This document shows, piece after piece, positions 46,813 to 55,708 of a stretch of 64,000 bases of DNA (position 1 is the stretch's first letter; each line of letters starts with the position of its first letter). Below the pieces are notes generated by a model. The model ran no database searches. It was not told the origin of the DNA and saw only the letters and a list, made by a program, of their open reading frames with translations. This DNA is from an uncultured Chloroflexia bacterium (GTDB lineage Bacteria; Chloroflexota; Limnocylindria; Limnocylindrales; CSP1-4): NCBI GenBank assembly GCA_963746845.1, contig CAVVCZ010000004.1:64001-128000 (forward strand). Direction: 5' to 3'. Both the position numbers and the translations under genes were made by a program.

Positions 46813-47525
46813 CCGACCGGCACGAATCGGACCGTGTCGCCGGGGTGGAGGAGGGCCGGGTCCGCGGCGCTCGCGTCGAACAGATGCCGCTCCGTCCGCC
46901 CGATCAGGTTCCAGCCGCCGGGCATGGCCAGGGGATAGACCCCGGTCTGCTCACCGGCGATCGCGACGCTGCCCGCGGGCACCCGCTCACGGGGGCTGGC
47001 CCGTCGCGGGCTCACGAGCTCCCGCGGCAGCCCGCCGAGATAGGCGAACCCGGGCGCGAACCCGAGGAACAGCACGCGGTACCGCGTGCCGGCATGCAGT
47101 GCGATGACCTCGCTCGGCCGGAGCCCGCGGGCATCCGCGATCTCCTGGAGGTCCGGACCGTCCGCGCCGCCGTAGCGAACGGGGATCTCGACGACCCGCT
47201 CCGGAGCCGCGGCCGGGCCCTCGATCGTGAACGAGGCCAGGGCGGCGGTTGCCGCGTCGCGGACGAGCGCGATCGCCTCGGCCGCTTCGATCGCCAACGG
47301 GTCGAACGGGACGAGGACCGTGGAAACGGCCGGGACCGCGCGGCCGATCCGGTCCGGCTCCGGCCATCGCTTCCCCAGGTCGTGCGCGATGACGGCCGCC
47401 CGGGCGGCCATCCACGCGACCGGATCCGGGCCGGGCTCCGGCGGCCCGGCGACGGTCACGAGCAGCGCGGCGTCGCCGAACGGATCGATCCGGAGCACGT
47501 CGCGGTCCGGGGCGTCCTCAGCCAC
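46809..47525 (-). CDS. pxpB: 5-oxoprolinase subunit B
   Basis: [41 protein letters not shown]. Confidence 0.9.
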
Positions 47526-48291
47526 GGAACGCCGCCGGCCCGAGGCCCGCGGTCTCGAGGGCGGTCCGGACCGCGCGCGCCACCGCGACCGCGTCCGGAC
47601 TGTCGCCGTGGACGCAGATCGTGTCCGCGCGCACGGCGAGCGTGGAGCCGTCCCCGGCCGTCACGACGCCGTCACGCGCGATCGACACCGCCTGGGCGGC
47701 CGCCGCCTCGGGACCAAGGAGCGCGCCGTCGAGCCGCCGCGATCGAAGGGACCCGTCCGGCTCGTAGCAGCGATCCGCGAACGCCTCCTCCGCGACGCGC
47801 AGCCCCGCCGCCCGCCCCGCAACCACGGATGCCGAACCGGCGAGCCCCACGAGGACCAGCTTCGGGTCGAGATCGCGCACGGCCCGAGCGATCGTCTCGG
47901 CCATCGCGGGATCCCCGGCGGCCCGGTTGTACATCGCCCCGTGCGGCTTCACGTGGCCCACCCGACCACCGGCGACGCGGGCACCCGCGACCACCGCCCC
48001 CACCTGGACGACGAGCGTCGCCCGGAGCTCGTCCGGCGTCAGCTCGAGGTCGCGCCGGCCGAAGCCCGCCAGGTCCGGATACCCGGGATGCGCCCCGATC
48101 GCGACCCCGTGGCGGACCGCCAGGGCGGCCGTCCGGAGGATGGTGGTGGCGTCGCCGGCGTGGGCGCCACACGCGATGTTCACGCTCGTCACGAGCGGGA
48201 CGATCGCCTCGTCCATGCCCATCGGCCACGGCCCGAACGACTCGCCGACGTCGGCGTTGAGATCGATCGCGCGGCGCTCCGTCGTCGTCAT
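47518..48291 (-). CDS. pxpA: 5-oxoprolinase subunit A (LamB/YcsF)
   Basis: [48 protein letters not shown]; own TACGAT 7 nt before ATG. Confidence 0.92.
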
Positions 48292-48325
48292 CGACCGGAT
48301 CGTAGCGCCGGCCCGCCGGACCCGA

Positions 48326-51126
48326 TCAGCTCGGTGCGGGCGACTCGGGTGTCGACGGATCGGCGTCGGGGTGGGGGTCGGCGTCGGGGTGGGGGTCGGC
48401 GTCGGCACCGGCTCCGACGGTGGAGGCTCCGACGGCGGAGGCTCCTCGGACGGCGAGGCGCTCGGGGCGACCGACGGCGGCGCGCACGGCTCGAACACGA
48501 GGTTGGCCGACGGATCGGCGGACGGCACCGCGAACGACGGGACCACCCCGCTCGGGTCCGGCGTCGGGACCGGGTAGCAGGTGACCGAGGGGCTCGGCAT
48601 CGCGCAGCCATGACCGACGACGAGCGCGCCCCACGAGCTGCCGTACGGCCGGAACGCCCCGTTGTAGAAGTACTGCGTCCGGCTCTGGTTGACGCCGCCG
48701 CGGATCCCGGCGCCCTTCTCGGCGCGGGCGATCCAGTCCTCGTCGGCGGTCATCCAGTTCCTGAACCGGTTCTCCCAGATGCCGTTCATGCCGAGGACCT
48801 CGACGCCGCAGGTCCCGACCGGCACGCTGTCCTTCGGCTCGGTGCCCGCGATGTACCACTCGGTGATGGTCTTGCCGCCCGCGGCGGGCTTGAGGCCGGT
48901 GAACGGGTCGATCTTCGCCTGGGTCAGCCCGGTCGGGACCGCGAAGTCGTTGATCGGCCACTTCGCCGTCGCCTCCTGGAGGAAGCCCTGCCACATGTAC
49001 GTCGTGACGTCGAGCGAGACGACGTCGCCGACGACCGTGTTGTCGCTGTTCCCGGCCCACGCCCCGACCGCGAGCGCGTATTGCCCGTTTGTCCGCCCGG
49101 CCGCTGACGGCGGCGCGATGTAGCCGTAGGCGTTGAGGTCCTTGGCGTCGTTGTTGGTCCCGGTCTTGAGCGTGGCCGGCCGGTGCTTGTCGCCGGGCCC
49201 GGTCAGCTCGAACCTGCCCCAGTACGGGTTGATGTGCGGATCGGTGTTGCCCTCGAGGATGTCCGTGACGATGAACGATGCCTGCGGGCTGGCCGCCTGC
49301 GTGCCGTCGGGCGGCACGTACGGCGGGATGACGTCCGTGCCGGTCTGGTTCTTCACGGACAGGATCGTCGTGTGGCCGATGTTCTTGCCGCCGTTCGCCA
49401 GGGTTCCATAGGCGGTGACGAGGTCGACCGGTCGGACCTCCTGGACGCCGAGCGCGATCGCCGCGCCGGCGGTCGTCTTGTCCGTCTGGAAGACCATCCC
49501 GAAGTCCTGGGCCCTCGCGAACAGGTGGTCCGGTGAGTTCACGATCGCGGTCTTGACCGCGGGGATGTTCAGGGAGAACTGGAGGGCACTACGGACGCGG
49601 ACGGGGCCGCGCTCCTGGTTGTCGGCGTCGGCCGGCGTGTAGCCGCCGCCGAAGTCCGTGGACGTGTCCATGAACATCGAGCCCGCGGTGATCTGCTTGT
49701 CGTCGATCCCGGTCAGGTAGTTGAACGGCTTGAACGCGGACCCGGGCTGGCGGAAGCCGCTGCCCACGACGTCGAACTTCGCCTGGAACTGCTTCGTGCT
49801 CTTGGGCGCGTAGTAGTTCGCGCTGCCCACGTAGGCGACCAGCTCGCCGGTCTGGTAGTCGAGCGCGACCAGTGCCCCGTTGTGGACGTCCCTGCCGCGC
49901 AGGTTCTTCATCCATGAGGCGTAGCCGCCCGGGATCTTCAGGGTCTTCGCCAGAGCCGCCGGATCCTTGCTGTTCGGGACGACCGCCGCGGCCTGGACCC
50001 ACTTCTCGGCCAGCGCCTGGAGCTTCACGTCGAGCGTCGTCGTGATCGTCAGACCGCCCGCCACCAGCTCGTCGCAGGTCGGCACGCCCTGGCCGCAGAG
50101 CTTGTCCGCGAGCTCTGCCTGGACGGCCCAGACGAAGTGTGGAGCGACCCAGCGCGGCGTGACCTGGGGGACGATCACGACCGGGTCGTTCTCGGCCGCC
50201 CGGAGCTCGGCCGGCGTGTACTGGCCGCCCGACTGGGGCGTCCGGCCGGCGGCCAGCAGCTCGAGGATCTGGTTCCGGCGCTGGACGATCGCGGTGTCCG
50301 GCGGGACCACGAGCTCCGTGCCCTTGCCGGAGGCACAGGTGTCCTCCGTGTCGTCCGGGCTCGGCTCGATGCACTGCGGGACCGCGTTCTTCACCAGGTC
50401 GTAGTTGGATGGTGACTTCGGAAGGGCCGCGAGGATCGCGGCCTGGGCGGGCGTCAGCTTCGAGAGGTCGTCGACGCCGAAGTACGACTTGGCTGCGGCC
50501 TTCACGCCGTACGACTGGTTGCCGTAGTAGTTCTGGTTCAGGTAGGCGGCGATGATCTGCTGCTTGCCCTGGACACCGGGGAACGCCTCGGTCAGGCGGA
50601 TCGACTGGATGATCTCCTTGACCTTCCGCTCGAATGTCCGCTTCGGATCCTGGACGAGGTTCTCGGGCAGCAGTCGCTGACGGACGAGCTGCTGGGTAAT
50701 CGTCGAGGCGCCGCGGCTGTTGCCGCGCAGGCCGTCGATCCCGGCCGAGATGATCGCGAGCGGGTCGAAGCCGGCGTTGTCCCAGAACGTCTTGTCCTCG
50801 ACCGCGGTCTGGGCGTCGATGACGATCGCCGGGATCTGGTCGAACGGGACGACGTCCCGCCGCTCCCCGCCGAACCGGGCCAGCTCGACCTTGCCGGTCC
50901 GGTCGTAGATGACCGACTGCTCCGAGAACGTGATCTTGTCGAAGTCGCCGACGGGCGGGAGACCGTCGGTCATTCGAGAGAAGGCCGCGACGACGCCGAC
51001 GGCGCCGAGGAACGCGATGATCGCGAGCCCGGCCCAGATCGCGAGGGCGATCCAGCCGGCGACGGACGGGGTCGTCCGGAGAGGGACGGCGCGGGCGGGC
51101 CGCGTCGGGCGAGGGGCGTCGTACAA
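48326..51126 (-). CDS. Class A penicillin-binding protein (transglycosylase/transpeptidase); frameshift near 48357
   Basis: VEDKTF, GASTITQQL, RKVKE, RQPGSAFK (SxxK), SLN, KTGT; Pro/Thr tail ending PSTPESPAPS*; TTG start after GGAG. Confidence 0.9.
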
Positions 51127-51351
51127 GCGTGAGCTCCGGGGACGGGTGGTCTGCGGAAGGATGCCATCGCCCGGTGAGAACGTGCAGGCGAGGGGTGGCG
51201 GTCGTCCCTGGGACGCGGTGACGGCCCGAGCTGTGGCGTTCCACGGTTCCCGCCGGTCCACCGCGGTTCGCCCGATGGCTCCGTCAGCCGGGAGTCGCTC
51301 GGACCGCTACCGTTGTGGCGAGTCGTCAACACAGCGGAGCAGCGAGGTGAG

Positions 51352-52458
51352 ATGGGCAACGCGGATCCAGGCAAACCGCTTCGCGGCCCGGGCGAACCGA
51401 CCCTCATGCGCGGGGAGATCGAGGCGATCCCGGCCGTTGTCGCCCGGTTCCTGGACGACGGGGCGGCCGAGGTCGGCATCGCCGCGGCGGCCGTCCGGTC
51501 TGCGGATCCGCGGTTCGTGGCGATCGTCGCTCGCGGCACCTCGGATCATGCCGCGATCCATCTGCGCTATCTGATCGAGACGGAGCTCCGGATCCCGACC
51601 GGGCTGGCGGCCCCATCGGTCACGACGCTGTACGGCACCGAGCTCCGCTGGCGCGGCGGGCTCGTCATCGCCGTCTCGCAGAGCGGGCAATCGCCGGACC
51701 TCGTCGCGGTCGTCGAGGCCGCACGCGCGGGCGGGGCGACGACCATCGCCATCGCCAACGACGCCCGGTCACCGCTCGCGGGGGCGGCCGAGCACGTCAT
51801 CGACTGCCGGGCAGGGGAGGAGCAGTCCGTCGCCGCCACGAAGTCGTACGTCGCGCAGCTGGCGGCCGGGGCCGCCCTGGTCGCCGCCCTGGCGCCTCGA
51901 TCGCCGCTGGCCTTGGCATTGCCGTCGATGCCGGAGGTCCTTGCCCTGGCGCTCGCCGAGGCGTCCTCCGCGGTGGCGGATGACGCGGTGATCGTTGCGG
52001 AGTTCGCCGCCTCGGAGCGCTCGATCGTGATCTCGCGGGGCTACGACTACCCGACGGCCCTCGAGACGGCCCTGAAGCTCAAGGAGACGGGACGGCTGTT
52101 CGCCGAGGGCTACTCGTCGGCCGACTTCAGCCACGGACCGGTCGTCCTGAGCGGGCCAGGCGTACCCGTCCTCGCGATCCGGCCGAACGGCCCGGTGGGT
52201 CGGGCCGTCGACGAGGGGATCGACGCGGCCCGGGCCGCGGGCGGGCGCCCGTGGGTGATCGCGGGCGCGGACGTCGGTGCCGCCGCCGATGCCGACGATC
52301 GGATCCTCCGACTGCCGCTGTCGGCGGATCTCCCCGATGGGTTGGCGCCCCTGGCGACGATCCTGCCCGGCCAGCTGCTCGCGGAGTCGGTCGCCCGCCG
52401 TCGGGGATTCGATCCCGACGCGCCCCCAGGGCTCCGGAAGGTGACCCTGACGCGCTGA
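51352..52458 (+). CDS. Double-SIS domain protein (GlmS isomerase-like / glucosamine-6-P deaminase)
   Basis: ARGTSDHAA, SQSGQSPD, VAATKSY, ETALKLKE, HGP, C-terminal PDAPPGLRKVT; no glutaminase domain. Confidence 0.88.
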   Translation: MGNADPGKPLRGPGEPTLMRGEIEAIPAVVARFLDDGAAEVGIAAAAVRSADPRFVAIVARGTSDHAAIHLRYLIETELRIPTGLAAPSVTTLYGTELRWRGGLVIAVSQSGQSPDLVAVVEAARAGGATTIAIANDARSPLAGAAEHVIDCRAGEEQSVAATKSYVAQLAAGAALVAALAPRSPLALALPSMPEVLALALAEASSAVADDAVIVAEFAASERSIVISRGYDYPTALETALKLKETGRLFAEGYSSADFSHGPVVLSGPGVPVLAIRPNGPVGRAVDEGIDAARAAGGRPWVIAGADVGAAADADDRILRLPLSADLPDGLAPLATILPGQLLAESVARRRGFDPDAPPGLRKVTLTR

Positions 52459-52504
52459 GATCGGGTCGCACGACGACCTCGCGACGCGCGTGTATCGTGG
52501 CCGC

Positions 52505-53182
52505 GTGATCGTCCTCACGACGCCGCGACTGGCCCGGTTCGGACGGCTCGCACGGCTTGCCGTGCTCCTGCTGTTCGCCCTGTTCGTCGCGCATGACGCC
52601 GTGTACGTCGCCCAGTACGGGTTCGGCGCCCGCTATGCGGCCGCGATGACGGCTGTCGGCCACGATGCGTGGTTCGCGCCGGCGTCGCTGATCATCGGAT
52701 CGATCGCTGCCCTCGTGGCCACGGTGGCCGTCCTGCGCCTCGGCCGCCTCACGATCCGCTCGTCGTCCGTTCCGTGCGCTGGATCCGCGTTCATCGACGT
52801 CGGTCCGAGCTACCTGCAGGAGCTGCGCTCGACGTGGCTGCGGCTGTTCCCGGCCGTCGTGGTCCTGTTCACGCTCCAGGAGAACGCGGAGGCCGCGCTC
52901 TCCGGACACCCGATCCCCGGGCTGGACCTCCTGTTCGGCGCGGGGAGTGGCCTGGTACTCCCGATCCTCGCGATGGTGACGTTCCTCCTCGCGGTCCTCG
53001 GCGCCGCCGTCCGGTGGCGGACGCGGGTGCTGCTGGCCCGAGCGAGGATCACCCGCCGCCATCCGCGACCCGCCGGTCGACGTGTCGCTCCGGCGTGGGT
53101 CGCCTCGTGCGCGGCGGTCGCGCACGAATGGATGCTCGACCGGCTCGACGCCGGTCGAGCGCCTCCGCAGATCGCCGTCTGA
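52505..53182 (+). CDS. 4-TM membrane protein with C-terminal RAPP motif; putative arrest-peptide leader
   Basis: Four hydrophobic segments with AHD, GHD.W, QEN.E and GH; ends GRAPPQIAV*; TATCGT 6 nt before GTG. Confidence 0.75.
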   Translation: MIVLTTPRLARFGRLARLAVLLLFALFVAHDAVYVAQYGFGARYAAAMTAVGHDAWFAPASLIIGSIAALVATVAVLRLGRLTIRSSSVPCAGSAFIDVGPSYLQELRSTWLRLFPAVVVLFTLQENAEAALSGHPIPGLDLLFGAGSGLVLPILAMVTFLLAVLGAAVRWRTRVLLARARITRRHPRPAGRRVAPAWVASCAAVAHEWMLDRLDAGRAPPQIAV

Positions 53183-53274
53183 TCGGGATCTGACCGGCGG
53201 CTCGGATGCCGCCGTTGGCGAGCGCCGCATGTCGGCGGTTCGCCGTGACTGTCCGCTGATCGCGGACCGGAGGT
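53161..53274 (+). promoter_or_regulatory. Putative SD-sequestering multibranch RNA structure
   Basis: GCCTCCG (53161-53167) pairs with CGGAGGT (53268-53274) and encloses four hairpins. Confidence 0.6.
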
Positions 53275-53281
53275 CATGTAC

Positions 53282-53885
53282 ATGTATCCATCGCCTCGGG
53301 CCGGCCGTGTCCGGCTGGCCTTCATCGCTGCCATCGGGCTGGCAGCGCTTGCCGTTGGCACGGCCGCCGCGCACGAGGAGCGCACGGTCGCCGGCTATGA
53401 CATGGAGGTCGGGTTCATCAATGAGCCGGTCTTCGTCGGCGACAAGAGCGGTCTCGAGTTCTTCGTCCACAAGGGCGACACGCCGGTCGAGGGCCTCGAG
53501 ACGACCGTGAAGGCCCAGGTCATCTATCAGGGCCAGAGCCGCGACCTGCCGATCTCGGCGCGCGAGGACGACCCGGGCGCCTACGAGTCGCAGTTCATTC
53601 CCACCGCCGCGGGTCCGTACACGTTCCACCTGACCGGCACGATCGAGGGGACGGCGATCGACGAGACGTTCACCTCGAGTCCGACCGGGTTCGACGAGGT
53701 CAAGGATCAGGCGAGCGGCCAGTTCCCCGTGCAGTTCCCGTCGCAGGCCGACATCGTCGCCGATGCCCAGGCCGGCCGGAACGCCGCGAACCAGGTGACG
53801 ATCGCACTGGTCCTCGGTGCCGCCGGGCTGCTCTTCGGCCTGATCGGGACCGGTCTGGCGATCTGCCGCGCGGCGGTCGCGCTGA
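53282..53885 (+). CDS. Exported YtkA/FixH-like protein, predicted N-terminal His after signal cleavage, C-terminal TM (frameshift near 53864)
   Basis: AAA-HEERTV, PVEGL, PGAYESQFIPTAAGPYTFH; ends AARRSR* in the shifted frame. Confidence 0.7.
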
Positions 53886-53890
53886 TCGTT

Positions 53891-55708
53891 GTGTCCATCC
53901 GCCGCGGGGTGCTCCTCGCGCTCTGGGCTGCCGTCGCGACCGGCTCGATCCTCGGACCGCCTCGCGGCGGCGGTCGCGGGCCACTCGCAGCTCGTCGCCA
54001 GCGTCCCGGCGGCGGGCGACGTGGTCGCCTCGCCACCGGCGGCCATCCTGCTGACCTTCTCGGAGCCGATCGATCCGGCCCACACATCGCTCGACCTGCT
54101 CGGCGGCGACGGGGCGGTCATCGCGTCCGGGCTCGGCTCGGTCGCTCCGGGCGACGATCACACGCTCCTCGCACCGCTGCCCGACCTGGCGACGGGGACC
54201 TACACGGTCAACTGGCGGGCGTTGTCGGCGGCCGACGGCCACAACACGTCCGGAACCTTCAGCTTCGGCGTCGGCGACGTCAGCCCGCCGCCGCTGTCGG
54301 CGGATGCCGGATCGGCCGGATCGCTCCACGCCGGCCACGACGCAGGGACGGTCCTCCTGGAGACGGAATCGCGGATCGTCGGCGATCTCGGCCTGATGGT
54401 CGCCGCGGGCCTGCCGGTCATCGGCTGGCTCGTCCTGCGCCGAACGGATTCACGGCGGGCTGGCTCGCGCCGCGGCATTCGGACTGTTCCTCGCGGCCGT
54501 GCGGCGCGGTCGGGATGCTCCTCCTCGGCGGGCCGGCGAGCGGCATCGACGTCGCGGCGTTCGTCGGGACCCACAGCGGCACGCTCGTCCTCACCCGGCT
54601 GGCGATCACCGCACTGGCCTGCGTCGTCGTCTGGTGGCTCGCGACCCGTCGGTCGCGAGCCGCGCTCGTCGTCGCCGGGGCGGCGGCCGTCGCCGGCCTC
54701 GTGCTCGTGGCGCTCGGCGGGCACGCCGCCGCGTTCAGCAGCGCGGCGCCGGTCGCGGCGACGGTCGTCCATCTCGTGGCCGCCTCGATCTGGGTCGCCG
54801 GCCTCGCGACGCTGGGCTGGCTCGCGATCCTGCCGGAGCACGCTCCGGCCGAGTTCGCCACCCTCGTGCCGCGGTTCTCGGGCGTCGCGATCGTGTCGAT
54901 CGGCCTGGTGAGCGCCACCGGGATCTACGCCGATTGGCTCCAGACCGGGTCGCTCCTCTCGCTCGAGACGCCGTACCAGGCGACCCTGGCCGTGAAGATC
55001 GGCCTGACGGTTGCGGCCCTCGCGATCGGCTGGCTGAACTACCGAGCGGCCGGTCGCGACCGGCGATTCGGCCCACGCGTCTTCCTCGAGGGGGCGCTCG
55101 CCCTCGGCGTCATCGTCGCAACCGGCATCCTCGCGAGCGGCTCGCCGCCGGGTCAGGCCGCGCCGATCCCGATCGCCAGCGTCGCGTCGAGCGCGCTCGA
55201 CGCGGGCAGCGCCGAGCTCGGGATCGCGCCGGGCCGGCCCGGTCCGACGCAGTTCACCGTGAAGCTTCCGACGGCCCCTGTCGCCGATGCGACCGTGGAG
55301 CTGGACCTGAGCCGGCTCGACCAGGCCGGTGAGACGCGCCTGCCCCTGCGGCCCGAGGCGGACCGGCTGACGTGGATCGCGCCGGGCGGCCTGCTGCCGG
55401 CCAACAGCCAGTTCGACGCGAACGTCATCGTCCGGAACGGCGCGGGCGTCGAACAGAGCCGGACCCGGTTCACGTTCGCCCTCGACGACGAGACGATCAT
55501 CGCGGGACGGGCCGAGCCCCCACTGGACCCTGTCGCGATCGTCGTCGCGGCCCTGATCGGGGCGGCTCTCGTCGGCGGACTCCTCCTGGTCGCCGGCCGG
55601 ACGCTGCCGGCGACGGACCGCCGGGCGGGACGCGTGGCGTTGCTCGGCGGGTCGGTCGTGTCGCTGGTGCTGGGGATTGTCGTGCTCGCCGGAGGGCTGC
55701 ACCCATGA
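53891..55708 (+). CDS. CopC-CopD copper uptake/resistance fusion (frameshifts near 53960 and 54500)
   Basis: CopC HSQLVASVP..LTFSEP..YTVNWRALSAADGH; CopD GHAA, HLVAASIWVAGL, RFS, TG, TPY..L.VK. Confidence 0.85.
   Translation: MSIRRGVLLALWAAVATGSILGPPRGGGRGPLAARRQRPGGGRRGRLATGGHPADLLGADRSGPHIARPARRRRGGHRVRARLGRSGRRSHAPRTAARPGDGDLHGQLAGVVGGRRPQHVRNLQLRRRRRQPAAAVGGCRIGRIAPRRPRRRDGPPGDGIADRRRSRPDGRRGPAGHRLARPAPNGFTAGWLAPRHSDCSSRPCGAVGMLLLGGPASGIDVAAFVGTHSGTLVLTRLAITALACVVVWWLATRRSRAALVVAGAAAVAGLVLVALGGHAAAFSSAAPVAATVVHLVAASIWVAGLATLGWLAILPEHAPAEFATLVPRFSGVAIVSIGLVSATGIYADWLQTGSLLSLETPYQATLAVKIGLTVAALAIGWLNYRAAGRDRRFGPRVFLEGALALGVIVATGILASGSPPGQAAPIPIASVASSALDAGSAELGIAPGRPGPTQFTVKLPTAPVADATVELDLSRLDQAGETRLPLRPEADRLTWIAPGGLLPANSQFDANVIVRNGAGVEQSRTRFTFALDDETIIAGRAEPPLDPVAIVVAALIGAALVGGLLLVAGRTLPATDRRAGRVALLGGSVVSLVLGIVVLAGGLHP

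Follow-up and report, generated by a model that had tools for sequence, protein, structure and literature searches.

We analysed a 64,000-nucleotide (nt) stretch of DNA from an uncultured Chloroflexia bacterium (assembly GCA_963746845.1, contig CAVVCZ010000004.1, positions 64,001 to 128,000; hereafter the window), in which an upstream open reading frame (ORF) ends in codons that can pair with the next gene's Shine-Dalgarno (SD) sequence. This frame, ORF-A (52490..53182 in the ORF list; here and below on the + strand unless stated otherwise), encodes a 230-residue protein with four predicted helices and a C-terminal Arg-Ala-Pro-Pro (RAPP) motif, and we propose that it acts as both sensor and arrest leader. 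We hold with moderate confidence that ORF-A is a regulatory membrane protein whose arrest at RAPP controls translation of the downstream copper-handling genes. The pairing between the RAPP codons and the downstream SD recurs across the ORF-A family and depends on codon choice, RAPP stays invariant while its flanks drift, and the neighboring genes are related to copper. The feature is real and probably functional.

The pairing involves two heptamers, GCCUCCG (53161..53167) and CGGAGGU (53268..53274), which are complementary through six Watson-Crick pairs and a terminal G-U. The first, an anti-SD by sequence and by RNAfold, consists of the last base of the Ala224 codon (GCG) together with the codons of Pro225 (CCT) and Pro226 (CCG), and forms the 5′ strand of a predicted closing helix. 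The second, which forms the 3′ strand by sequence and in the folds, is the SD region of the next gene (gene B) and the best match to a generic anti-SD among the candidate starts. When 53161-53274 is folded with RNAfold, the minimum-energy structure equals the centroid and consists of the seven-pair closing helix around four hairpins. In this structure, hairpin 1 (53168..53192; CAGAUC/GAUCUG with an inner CCG/CGG) abuts the closing helix and carries in its loop the ORF-A stop codon TGA (53180..53182, from the sequence, the ORF list and the fold). Hairpin 2 (53195..53214; CGGCGGC/GCCGCCG) and hairpin 3 (53217..53244) follow, and hairpin 4 (53251..53267; GUCCGC/GCGGAC) abuts the closing helix from the other side. 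A sequence-only reading of this region had described the heptamer pairing, the four hairpins and the abutment of the first and last of them on the closing helix, all of which are recovered exactly; the pairing and the predicted fold in the window are thereby confirmed.

The fold of 53161-53274 has an energy of -68.9 kcal/mol, compared with -53.1 +/- 3.6 in 200 dinucleotide shuffles (z -4.44; 0/200 as good), a z-score that is inflated because these bounds were picked to fit the structure. With the looser bounds 53140-53300, the junction is still the minimum-energy fold, at z -2.21 with 7/200 shuffles as good. This smaller margin is in keeping with chance structure in G+C-rich DNA, a reading in which Pro-Pro codons would resemble an anti-SD by composition, any 70% G+C spacer would form hairpins, and RAPP would be kept for a protein function unrelated to arrest. 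Shuffles of the same composition already fold to -53 to -75 kcal/mol, which also favors such an origin. The comparisons among relatives described below bear on it more directly.

RAPP is the most conserved feature of the ORF-A family. In the window its codons are CGA GCG CCT CCG (53156..53167, Arg223-Pro226, read from the sequence), and the protein ends in LDAGRAPPQIAV. We take these codons as the proposed stall site, with Pro225 in the peptidyl (P) site and Pro226 in the aminoacyl (A) site, an assignment borrowed from the toeprint of CruR reported in PMC12992588. Among the loci that we fetched, 93/93 complete family ORFs have RAPP no further than about 15 residues from the stop (a 94th hit, L002, is cut by a contig end and was left out), most commonly at a distance of 5 residues. 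It is found no more than 20 residues from the end in 115 of the 120 best database relatives; of the five exceptions, two are truncated, one has RSPP instead, one carries its RAPP 35 residues from the end and one lacks the motif. Similarly, 138 of 150 representatives at 50% identity carry it within 25 residues of the end; the other 12 comprise one RGPP, three RSPP, one RPPP, one RDPP and six fragments or divergent ends. The sequence flanking RAPP varies freely among family members. The family therefore shares the conserved near-C-terminal RAPP or RGPP of the RAPP-type regulatory arrest peptides (ApdA/ApdP/ApcA, CruR and the S. lividans set), in agreement with the sequence-only reading.

The RAPP codons are also unusual in their composition. 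The first Pro codon (Pro1) is CCT in 27/93 loci (29%) and the second (Pro2) in 19/93, whereas CCT accounts for about 5% of the remaining Pro codons of these ORFs. For the Ala codon, GCT occurs in 27/93 loci and GCA in 14/93, versus 6% each elsewhere in these ORFs. This bias towards A- or T-ending codons across RAPP is only partly explained by anti-SD pairing.

To measure SD pairing across the family, we assigned start codons and SD cores by a rule of our own: the start had to open a frame of no fewer than 70 codons, the SD core had to lie 3-18 nt ahead of it, and among the candidates we took the one forming the best duplex with a generic anti-SD. From 93 loci, 90 had such a start and 80 of these, with a gap of at most 140 nt, were folded, each fold beginning 30 nt ahead of the Arg codon and ending at the start codon. 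We dropped three loci without a downstream start (missing sequence or no long enough ORF) and ten with gaps above 140 nt, which are probable mispredictions or other arrangements. The stall zone, set by the size of the ribosome footprint, runs over -15..+16, counted from the first base of Pro1.

Across these 80 loci, the mean probability that the SD pairs with the stall zone is 0.388, and 34 loci exceed 0.5. Chimeras that carry another locus's ORF tail reach a mean of 0.185 with 18% above 0.5 (Wilcoxon p 2e-5 against native), and synonymous recodings of the tail with family codon usage reach 0.126 with 11% above 0.5 (p 2e-7), locus-level p-values that overstate the difference because the loci are related. 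Native pairing thus exceeds the synonymous recodings three-fold. When loci are grouped into 34 clusters at 50% identity, the native mean is 0.376 versus 0.177, with native higher in 20 of the 34 (p 0.002), and 18/34 clusters hold a positive locus. The same signal appears in the sequences themselves: an exact complement of at least 6 nt to the locus's own SD window starts at -15..+16 in 34/80 loci, compared with 15.3 expected from swapped SD windows, and over the range -150..+40 the excess of such complements is confined to the bins -10..+19. Furthermore, CCTCC occurs at -6..+22 in 34/80 loci and 17/34 clusters, versus 78/1600 background windows. The recoding and chimera tests point to selection on SD pairing itself. 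They agree with the synonymous constraint that the sequence-only reading named as a check, and the anti-SD that it placed in the RAPP codons recurs at these codons or just behind them.

At about 20 of the 80 loci, the predicted partner of the SD lies 22-35 nt upstream of the P site, a place that a queued second ribosome would occupy. This upstream pairing could be an artefact of the folding window, as folds began at -36, or a second mode.

Among the closer relatives of the window locus (11 distinct loci at 45-68% identity, with the duplicates L099 and L106 set aside), the position of the anti-SD shifts. It stays in the stall site or directly behind it and is matched in its flanks to the SD of the same locus, as the co-varying pairs CCUCCGU/ACGGAGG, AUCCUCC/GGAGGAU, ACCUCCA/UGGAGGU, GGAUCCUCC/GGAGGAUCC and CCUCCACG/CGUGGAGG illustrate. 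Covariation in homologs was among the checks that the sequence-only reading had named. In 9/11 of these loci, the SD and the ORF tail are paired in the minimum-energy fold, the exceptions being L097 and L111; L105 pairs with a bulged A, owing to its CCG CCG Pro codons.

The enclosed hairpins are less constant, ranging in number from one to four among the closer relatives, and for this reason we regard the closing helix as the conserved entity. Hairpins 2-4 are common only to the window, L008 and L105, whereas the other loci enclose between one and three hairpins or have the SD paired at another place. In L008 and L105, hairpin 2 is kept with small changes and hairpin 4 is also kept (one pair longer in L105); hairpin 3 is replaced by a hairpin at the equivalent place, the sequence being unrelated in each of the three loci. 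The five-way junction is therefore not conserved as a unit but is a lineage-specific local elaboration, and the closing helix is its recurrent part. RNAalifold was also run on these three loci; because MAFFT aligns them poorly over hairpin 3 and the covariation term comes out positive (+3.55), we relied on single-sequence folds.

These comparisons make a chance origin very improbable in our judgement. Chimeras do still pair the SD with the stall zone in 18% of cases, as composition would allow. The chimera, recoding and complement-position tests nonetheless all disfavor chance, given the three-fold excess over recodings and the position-specific excess of SD complements. Only CCU followed by CCN yields CCUCC, and it is CCU that rises from 5% of Pro codons in these ORFs to 29% at Pro1. 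Finally, flanks that co-vary and a hairpin 3 that keeps its place with a wholly different sequence count against structure arising from composition.

In the mechanism that we favor, a ribosome reaching Pro225/Pro226 would arrest with the former in the P site and the latter in the A site, as judged from published RAPP peptides. These two sites would then hold the (G)CCUCCG that otherwise pairs with the gene B SD, CGGAGGU, 100 nt downstream, the four intervening hairpins serving to bring the strands of the closing helix together. The stall would block this helix and leave the SD with at most a weak local partner, allowing a 30S subunit to start on the freed SD of gene B and, by extension, CopC/CopD to be translated. 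Upon release of the arrest, translation of the last four codons and termination would let the helix re-form, turning the gene off. At the arrest point the core of helix 4 (156-174) is 51-69 residues from the peptidyl-transferase center and therefore out of the tunnel, and its insertion, or its docking onto helices 1-3, could supply the force that releases the arrest. Release would then depend on the state of the nascent four-helix bundle, and invariant polar residues facing outward could make docking metal-dependent. Within this scheme we infer the arrest itself, the unmasking of the SD in vivo, copper as the signal and the direction of its effect.

Several observations weigh against this interpretation. 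At the family level, 46/80 loci fall below a probability of 0.5 for pairing between SD and stall zone, and in many of these the predicted partner of the SD is intergenic or lies 22-35 nt upstream of the P site. The start codons and SD cores were picked by our own rule, ten long-gap and three startless loci are excluded from the 93, and relatedness among loci inflates the p-values given above. The codon evidence is divided as well: CCT is enriched at Pro1, but CCU at this position does not predict pairing (13/25 loci with CCU and 21/55 without; Fisher p 0.33), and part of the RAPP codon bias may stem from a second cause. A paralogue in the window's own genome (L005, G000:C4:1336305-1336976; 36% identity) has a RAPP end, VRAPPSVRFAPV, with codons CCT CCG. 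It is followed after 81 nt by a gene resembling S-adenosylmethionine-dependent methyltransferases, with an uncertain start codon, and not by a copper gene, and its SD is predicted to pair with the stall zone at a probability of only 0.08. In the window, the closing-pair probability is 0.98 in a 161-nt context and just 0.52-0.62 in contexts of 231-501 nt, though GGAGG is almost fully paired in every folding context. Lastly, assembly indel errors lie near the element (see below), and public contigs leave 52900-53298 uncovered.

Constrained folds of the window also temper the proposed release of the SD. When 53147-53178 is forced single-stranded, the closing helix is lost, but GGAGG is not fully freed. 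Instead, it re-pairs weakly in a small local hairpin with CCUC (53294..53297, codons 5-6 of gene B), an alternative partner that appears in these constrained folds, and its last two G remain paired (probability unpaired 0.01). This local hairpin should open far more easily for a 30S subunit than the closing helix. Overall, the sequence-only interpretation has held for RAPP conservation, recurrent pairing and covariation of the flanks, and has had to give way on a conserved junction and on full release of the SD.

A further point against an arrest-specific switch is that a ribosome at the stop codon covers 53162-53193 and likewise abolishes the closing helix in the model. This behavior would follow from plain translational coupling, in which any ribosome finishing ORF-A opens the helix briefly and RAPP is a slow spot or a feature of the protein. 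Sequestration of an SD by the upstream coding sequence is a common coupling device, and the 46/80 loci that place no anti-SD under the stall site would fit coupling too. What coupling leaves unexplained is why SD complements are most frequent at -10..+19 relative to the Pro codon and not at the stop, and why RAPP, a motif reported to be strongly excluded from proteomes (PMC12992588), is invariant amid drifting flanks. We therefore consider coupling by itself unlikely.

RAPP arrest might alternatively act on transcription or mRNA fate, for example by blocking Rho, with SD pairing being secondary. CruR, the sole RAPP copper leader with genetics, uses Rho-dependent termination according to PMC9426467, and the SD is unpaired with the stall zone in about half of the family. 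By contrast, the 99-nt intergenic region between ORF-A and gene B is filled by G+C-rich hairpins rather than unstructured C-rich RNA, and a promoter and terminator scan of 52300-53500 returned 0 sites of either kind. The evidence from recodings and chimeras for selection on SD pairing itself likewise argues against a secondary role, making this alternative quite improbable. We continue to favor control of gene B translation through arrest at RAPP.

We next consider the protein that would carry this arrest. Scans of ORF-A against Pfam and NCBIfam found no family, only chance-level rows (with no Pfam match at E <= 5 otherwise), and a Foldseek search of its model against the PDB gave no match at E <= 0.001. 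The AlphaFold2 model, built on 28 relatives, has a mean predicted local distance difference test (pLDDT) score of 80, with helices at 12-43, 62-92, 108-137 and 156-190 and a low-confidence tail at 191-230. Within these helices lie hydrophobic cores at 23-41, 64-82, 119-137 and 156-174, with mean Kyte-Doolittle hydropathy of 1.3-2.6. Clusters of Lys and Arg at the N-terminus, after helix 2 and after helix 4 imply that both termini are cytoplasmic, a topology read from hydropathy, charge pattern (the positive-inside rule) and the AlphaFold2 helices alone. The predicted membrane segments would provide the N-terminal localization signal seen in RAPP arrest peptides.

Alignment of 28 diverse relatives shows invariant columns at L31, H35, G44, G57, L87, Q130, E131, N132, E134, G144 and R223-A224-P225-P226, with H58 nearly invariant. 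No Cys or Met is conserved among these 28 sequences, and the tail between helix 4 and RAPP is poorly conserved apart from RAPP itself. The spacing from QEN to RAPP is nonetheless 88-98 residues in 286 of 287 unique sequences (median 92). Under the topology above, H35, H58/D59 and QENxE (130-134) would face outward, where they could bind copper.

A bolder version of our proposal, which we put forward tentatively, is that this unannotated four-helix family is a copper sensor that reports through its own synthesis. The copper state at an outer His/Asp/Gln/Glu site might decide whether helix 4 docks and pulls the chain off the RAPP arrest, and seven bases of the Ala-Pro-Pro codons would double as the anti-SD of a copper-acquisition operon. 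The anti-SD would have moved repeatedly, among the RAPP codons, the next three to five codons and the stop codon, always under the stalled ribosome. If true, one short element would be read both as peptide, within the tunnel, and as RNA, outside the ribosome's tunnel.

The relatives of ORF-A are labelled Candidatus Limnocylindrales or Chloroflexota in their source records. A family profile matched 113/401 genomes sampled from Limnocylindria (a tally that takes in six unpublished genomes) and 738 clusters at 50% identity with E <= 0.001 in a library of 1.84 billion proteins. A scan of genome contigs with two ORF-A peptide patterns found 36 loci, in Chloroflexota records only, although such a scan cannot show absence elsewhere. 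In the ESM Atlas, the 30 nearest clusters are all annotated 'hypothetical protein', with Actinomycetota, Chloroflexota and Vulcanimicrobiota as the commonest phyla, which we treat as a lead only.

Downstream of ORF-A, gene B (53282..53885) encodes a signal peptide, an N-terminal His, an Ig-like beta-sandwich and a C-terminal membrane helix. Its candidate starts are ATG 53276, 2 nt after GGAGG, and ATG 53282, 8 nt after it; we consider the latter the plausible start because the former is just 2 nt past GGAGG. The mature N-terminus begins with His (AAA|HEER), and the protein is 77% identical over 195 residues to the 200-residue protein of L008. Pfam and NCBIfam scans of gene B yielded no family, only chance-level rows, and a PDB sequence search with its profile found nothing below E 0.2. 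The AlphaFold2 model (pLDDT 85) has as Foldseek neighbors H. pylori CrdA, DUF4426, copper-bound FetP, FtrA and CopC, at E 2e-4 to 4e-3; the match to CrdA, a copper-resistance protein, has a TM-target of 0.72 and a root-mean-square deviation of 2.3. These model-based similarities suggest that gene B is probably a cell-surface copper-binding protein.

Gene B is followed by a CopC-CopD gene (53891..55708; CopC PF04234 at 1e-21 and NF033814 at 6e-19), which is split over three reading frames in this assembly; its CopD-like membrane part was seen by eye in the frame 53249..55708. The next gene in the 80 folded loci is mostly of the gene-B family, with an N-terminal His and a G.Y..VGF/W..EP motif. 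Pfam assigned other kinds of next gene at one locus each, namely CopC (L013), SCO1/SenC (L022) and DUF1775/YcnI (L054). The downstream gap is 42-140 nt in 80 of the 90 loci with a predicted start. Like the RAPP arrest peptides, ORF-A thus precedes, on the same strand and at a short distance (99 nt in the window), genes with a role connected to its putative signal, the neighbors being CopC, SCO1, YcnI or the gene-B family.

An extra base at window position 53863 hides the true gene B stop, TGA 53883-53885, such that gene B runs on as an 810-residue ORF. One short-read contig matches the window at its other 151 bases but has one base fewer at 53863, and with that base gone the stop at 53883-53885 returns. 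Short-read contigs, derived from public soil runs (four DNA runs from one study; no RNA run carrying this sequence was listed), also differ by single-base indels within the CopC-CopD gene at 53962, 54449, 54454 and 54497. The frame shifts in gene B and CopC-CopD are probably assembly indel errors, not pseudogenes. Elsewhere in the window, a 1247-residue ORF on the - strand (47518-51261) has, by eye, a part resembling class-A penicillin-binding proteins, a PTPTPT linker and a part resembling LamB/YcsF (5-oxoprolinase subunit A), with no internal stop; given the neighboring indels, an assembly error may have joined two separate genes here.

What is new here is the membrane-sensor family, the lineage in which it occurs, and arrest codons that double as an anti-SD across a multibranch spacer. 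The family is set apart from published leaders by their descriptions, and the appendix or source data of PMC12992588 may list it. If correct, the proposal would extend the short list of metal-responsive arrest leaders by a sensor family that is embedded in the membrane, lacks cysteine and comes from an uncultured lineage of soil and freshwater, and would give RAPP leaders of the transmembrane type upstream of copper genes, known from bioinformatics and arrest assays, a concrete mRNA mechanism. It would also be a case of dual coding. Among the matches listed, judged by titles and abstract openings, a literature search found no account of RAPP codons doubling as an anti-SD; for Limnocylindria and copper, only unrelated work came up. 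Nothing is overturned: the logic of unmasking an SD is that of SecM, MifM and CutF, and not new.

In SecM-secA and MifM-yidC2, translation of an upstream ORF arrests close to its C-terminus, which opens the helix in which the downstream SD is held, and a pull on the nascent chain, membrane or secretory, is expected to end the arrest. The likeness to SecM and MifM suggested by the sequence-only reading is sound in that arrest in the upstream ORF is predicted to open an SD-holding helix here as well, one within reach of the stalled ribosome in the folds of the window and of 34/80 loci; the logic itself is not new, being already documented, including for CutF. Unlike in those systems, the window's downstream genes, gene B and CopC/CopD, encode no Sec or YidC component, RAPP is the motif, and what the helix closes is a multibranch junction instead of a simple stem-loop. 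An Rfam scan of 52900-53500 found no cis-regulatory RNA family, the best row being RF02883 on the opposite strand (14.4 bits versus a gathering score of 40; E 0.99).

Among arrest peptides, the closest parallels are the RAPP leaders of Fujiwara et al. (EMBO J 2025, PMC12992588). As reported there, RAPP and RGPP are depleted from proteomes and enriched near the C-termini of small proteins, secretory or membrane-bound, whose genes precede those of YcnI, PCu(A)C and other metal genes; arrest by RAPP peptides is robust, and leaders with transmembrane segments precede YcnI and other copper genes. Seven S. lividans RAPP/RGPP proteins arrest in vitro, including SLIV_18480, which has four such segments, and the CruR toeprint places the two RAPP Pro codons in the P and A sites. 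SLIV_18480 resembles ORF-A in having fewer than 300 residues, RAPP a few residues before the stop, four predicted membrane segments, conserved His and a downstream copper-related gene on the same strand (YcnI-like, copper-resistance). By description, it conserves three His, one Met and two Cys, whereas the ORF-A family conserves H35, H58 and QENxE. The terms 'secondary structure', 'Shine-Dalgarno' and 'stem-loop' have 0 occurrences in the main text of PMC12992588.

CruR (Bp2923) of Bordetella pertussis couples RAPP arrest to copper, and copper-responsive control of its downstream gene depends on RAPP (PMC9426467). It shares with ORF-A a C-terminal RAPP (three residues before the end in CruR), a downstream copper-related gene and a conserved spacing from sensing motif to RAPP, the QEN-to-RAPP distance in ORF-A being similarly tight. 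CruR is, however, a DUF2946 protein with CXXC that acts through Rho-dependent termination across a 162-nt spacer kept unstructured, whereas the window's spacer is fully structured and the target is an SD. ORF-A has no Pfam DUF2946 match and no CxxC or CxxxC conserved among its 28 aligned relatives.

The SD-shielding part of our model is closest to CutF-cutO of Rhodobacter capsulatus, where stalling is proposed to open a stem-loop that shields the SD and where mutation of the anti-SD makes the leader dispensable (PMC9973294; bioRxiv 10.1101/2025.02.05.636593). Copper prolongs the CutF arrest according to these sources, but relieves that of CruR (PMC9426467); with published relatives working in both directions, the ON state under metal limitation suggested by the sequence-only reading is one candidate direction for ORF-A. 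In both CutF and ORF-A, a C-terminal proline motif for stalling, proposed in the case of ORF-A, is joined to an mRNA structure covering the SD of a copper-related gene that comes next. CutF belongs to DUF2946, is small and exported, and has CxxxC as well as a PPP motif sensitive to elongation factor P, whereas ORF-A is a predicted four-helix membrane protein with no Pfam family and RAPP. Furthermore, the CutF shield is a single local stem-loop in the spacer, while the predicted anti-SD of ORF-A lies in or right behind the arrest codons themselves and reaches its SD across 100 nt of hairpins.

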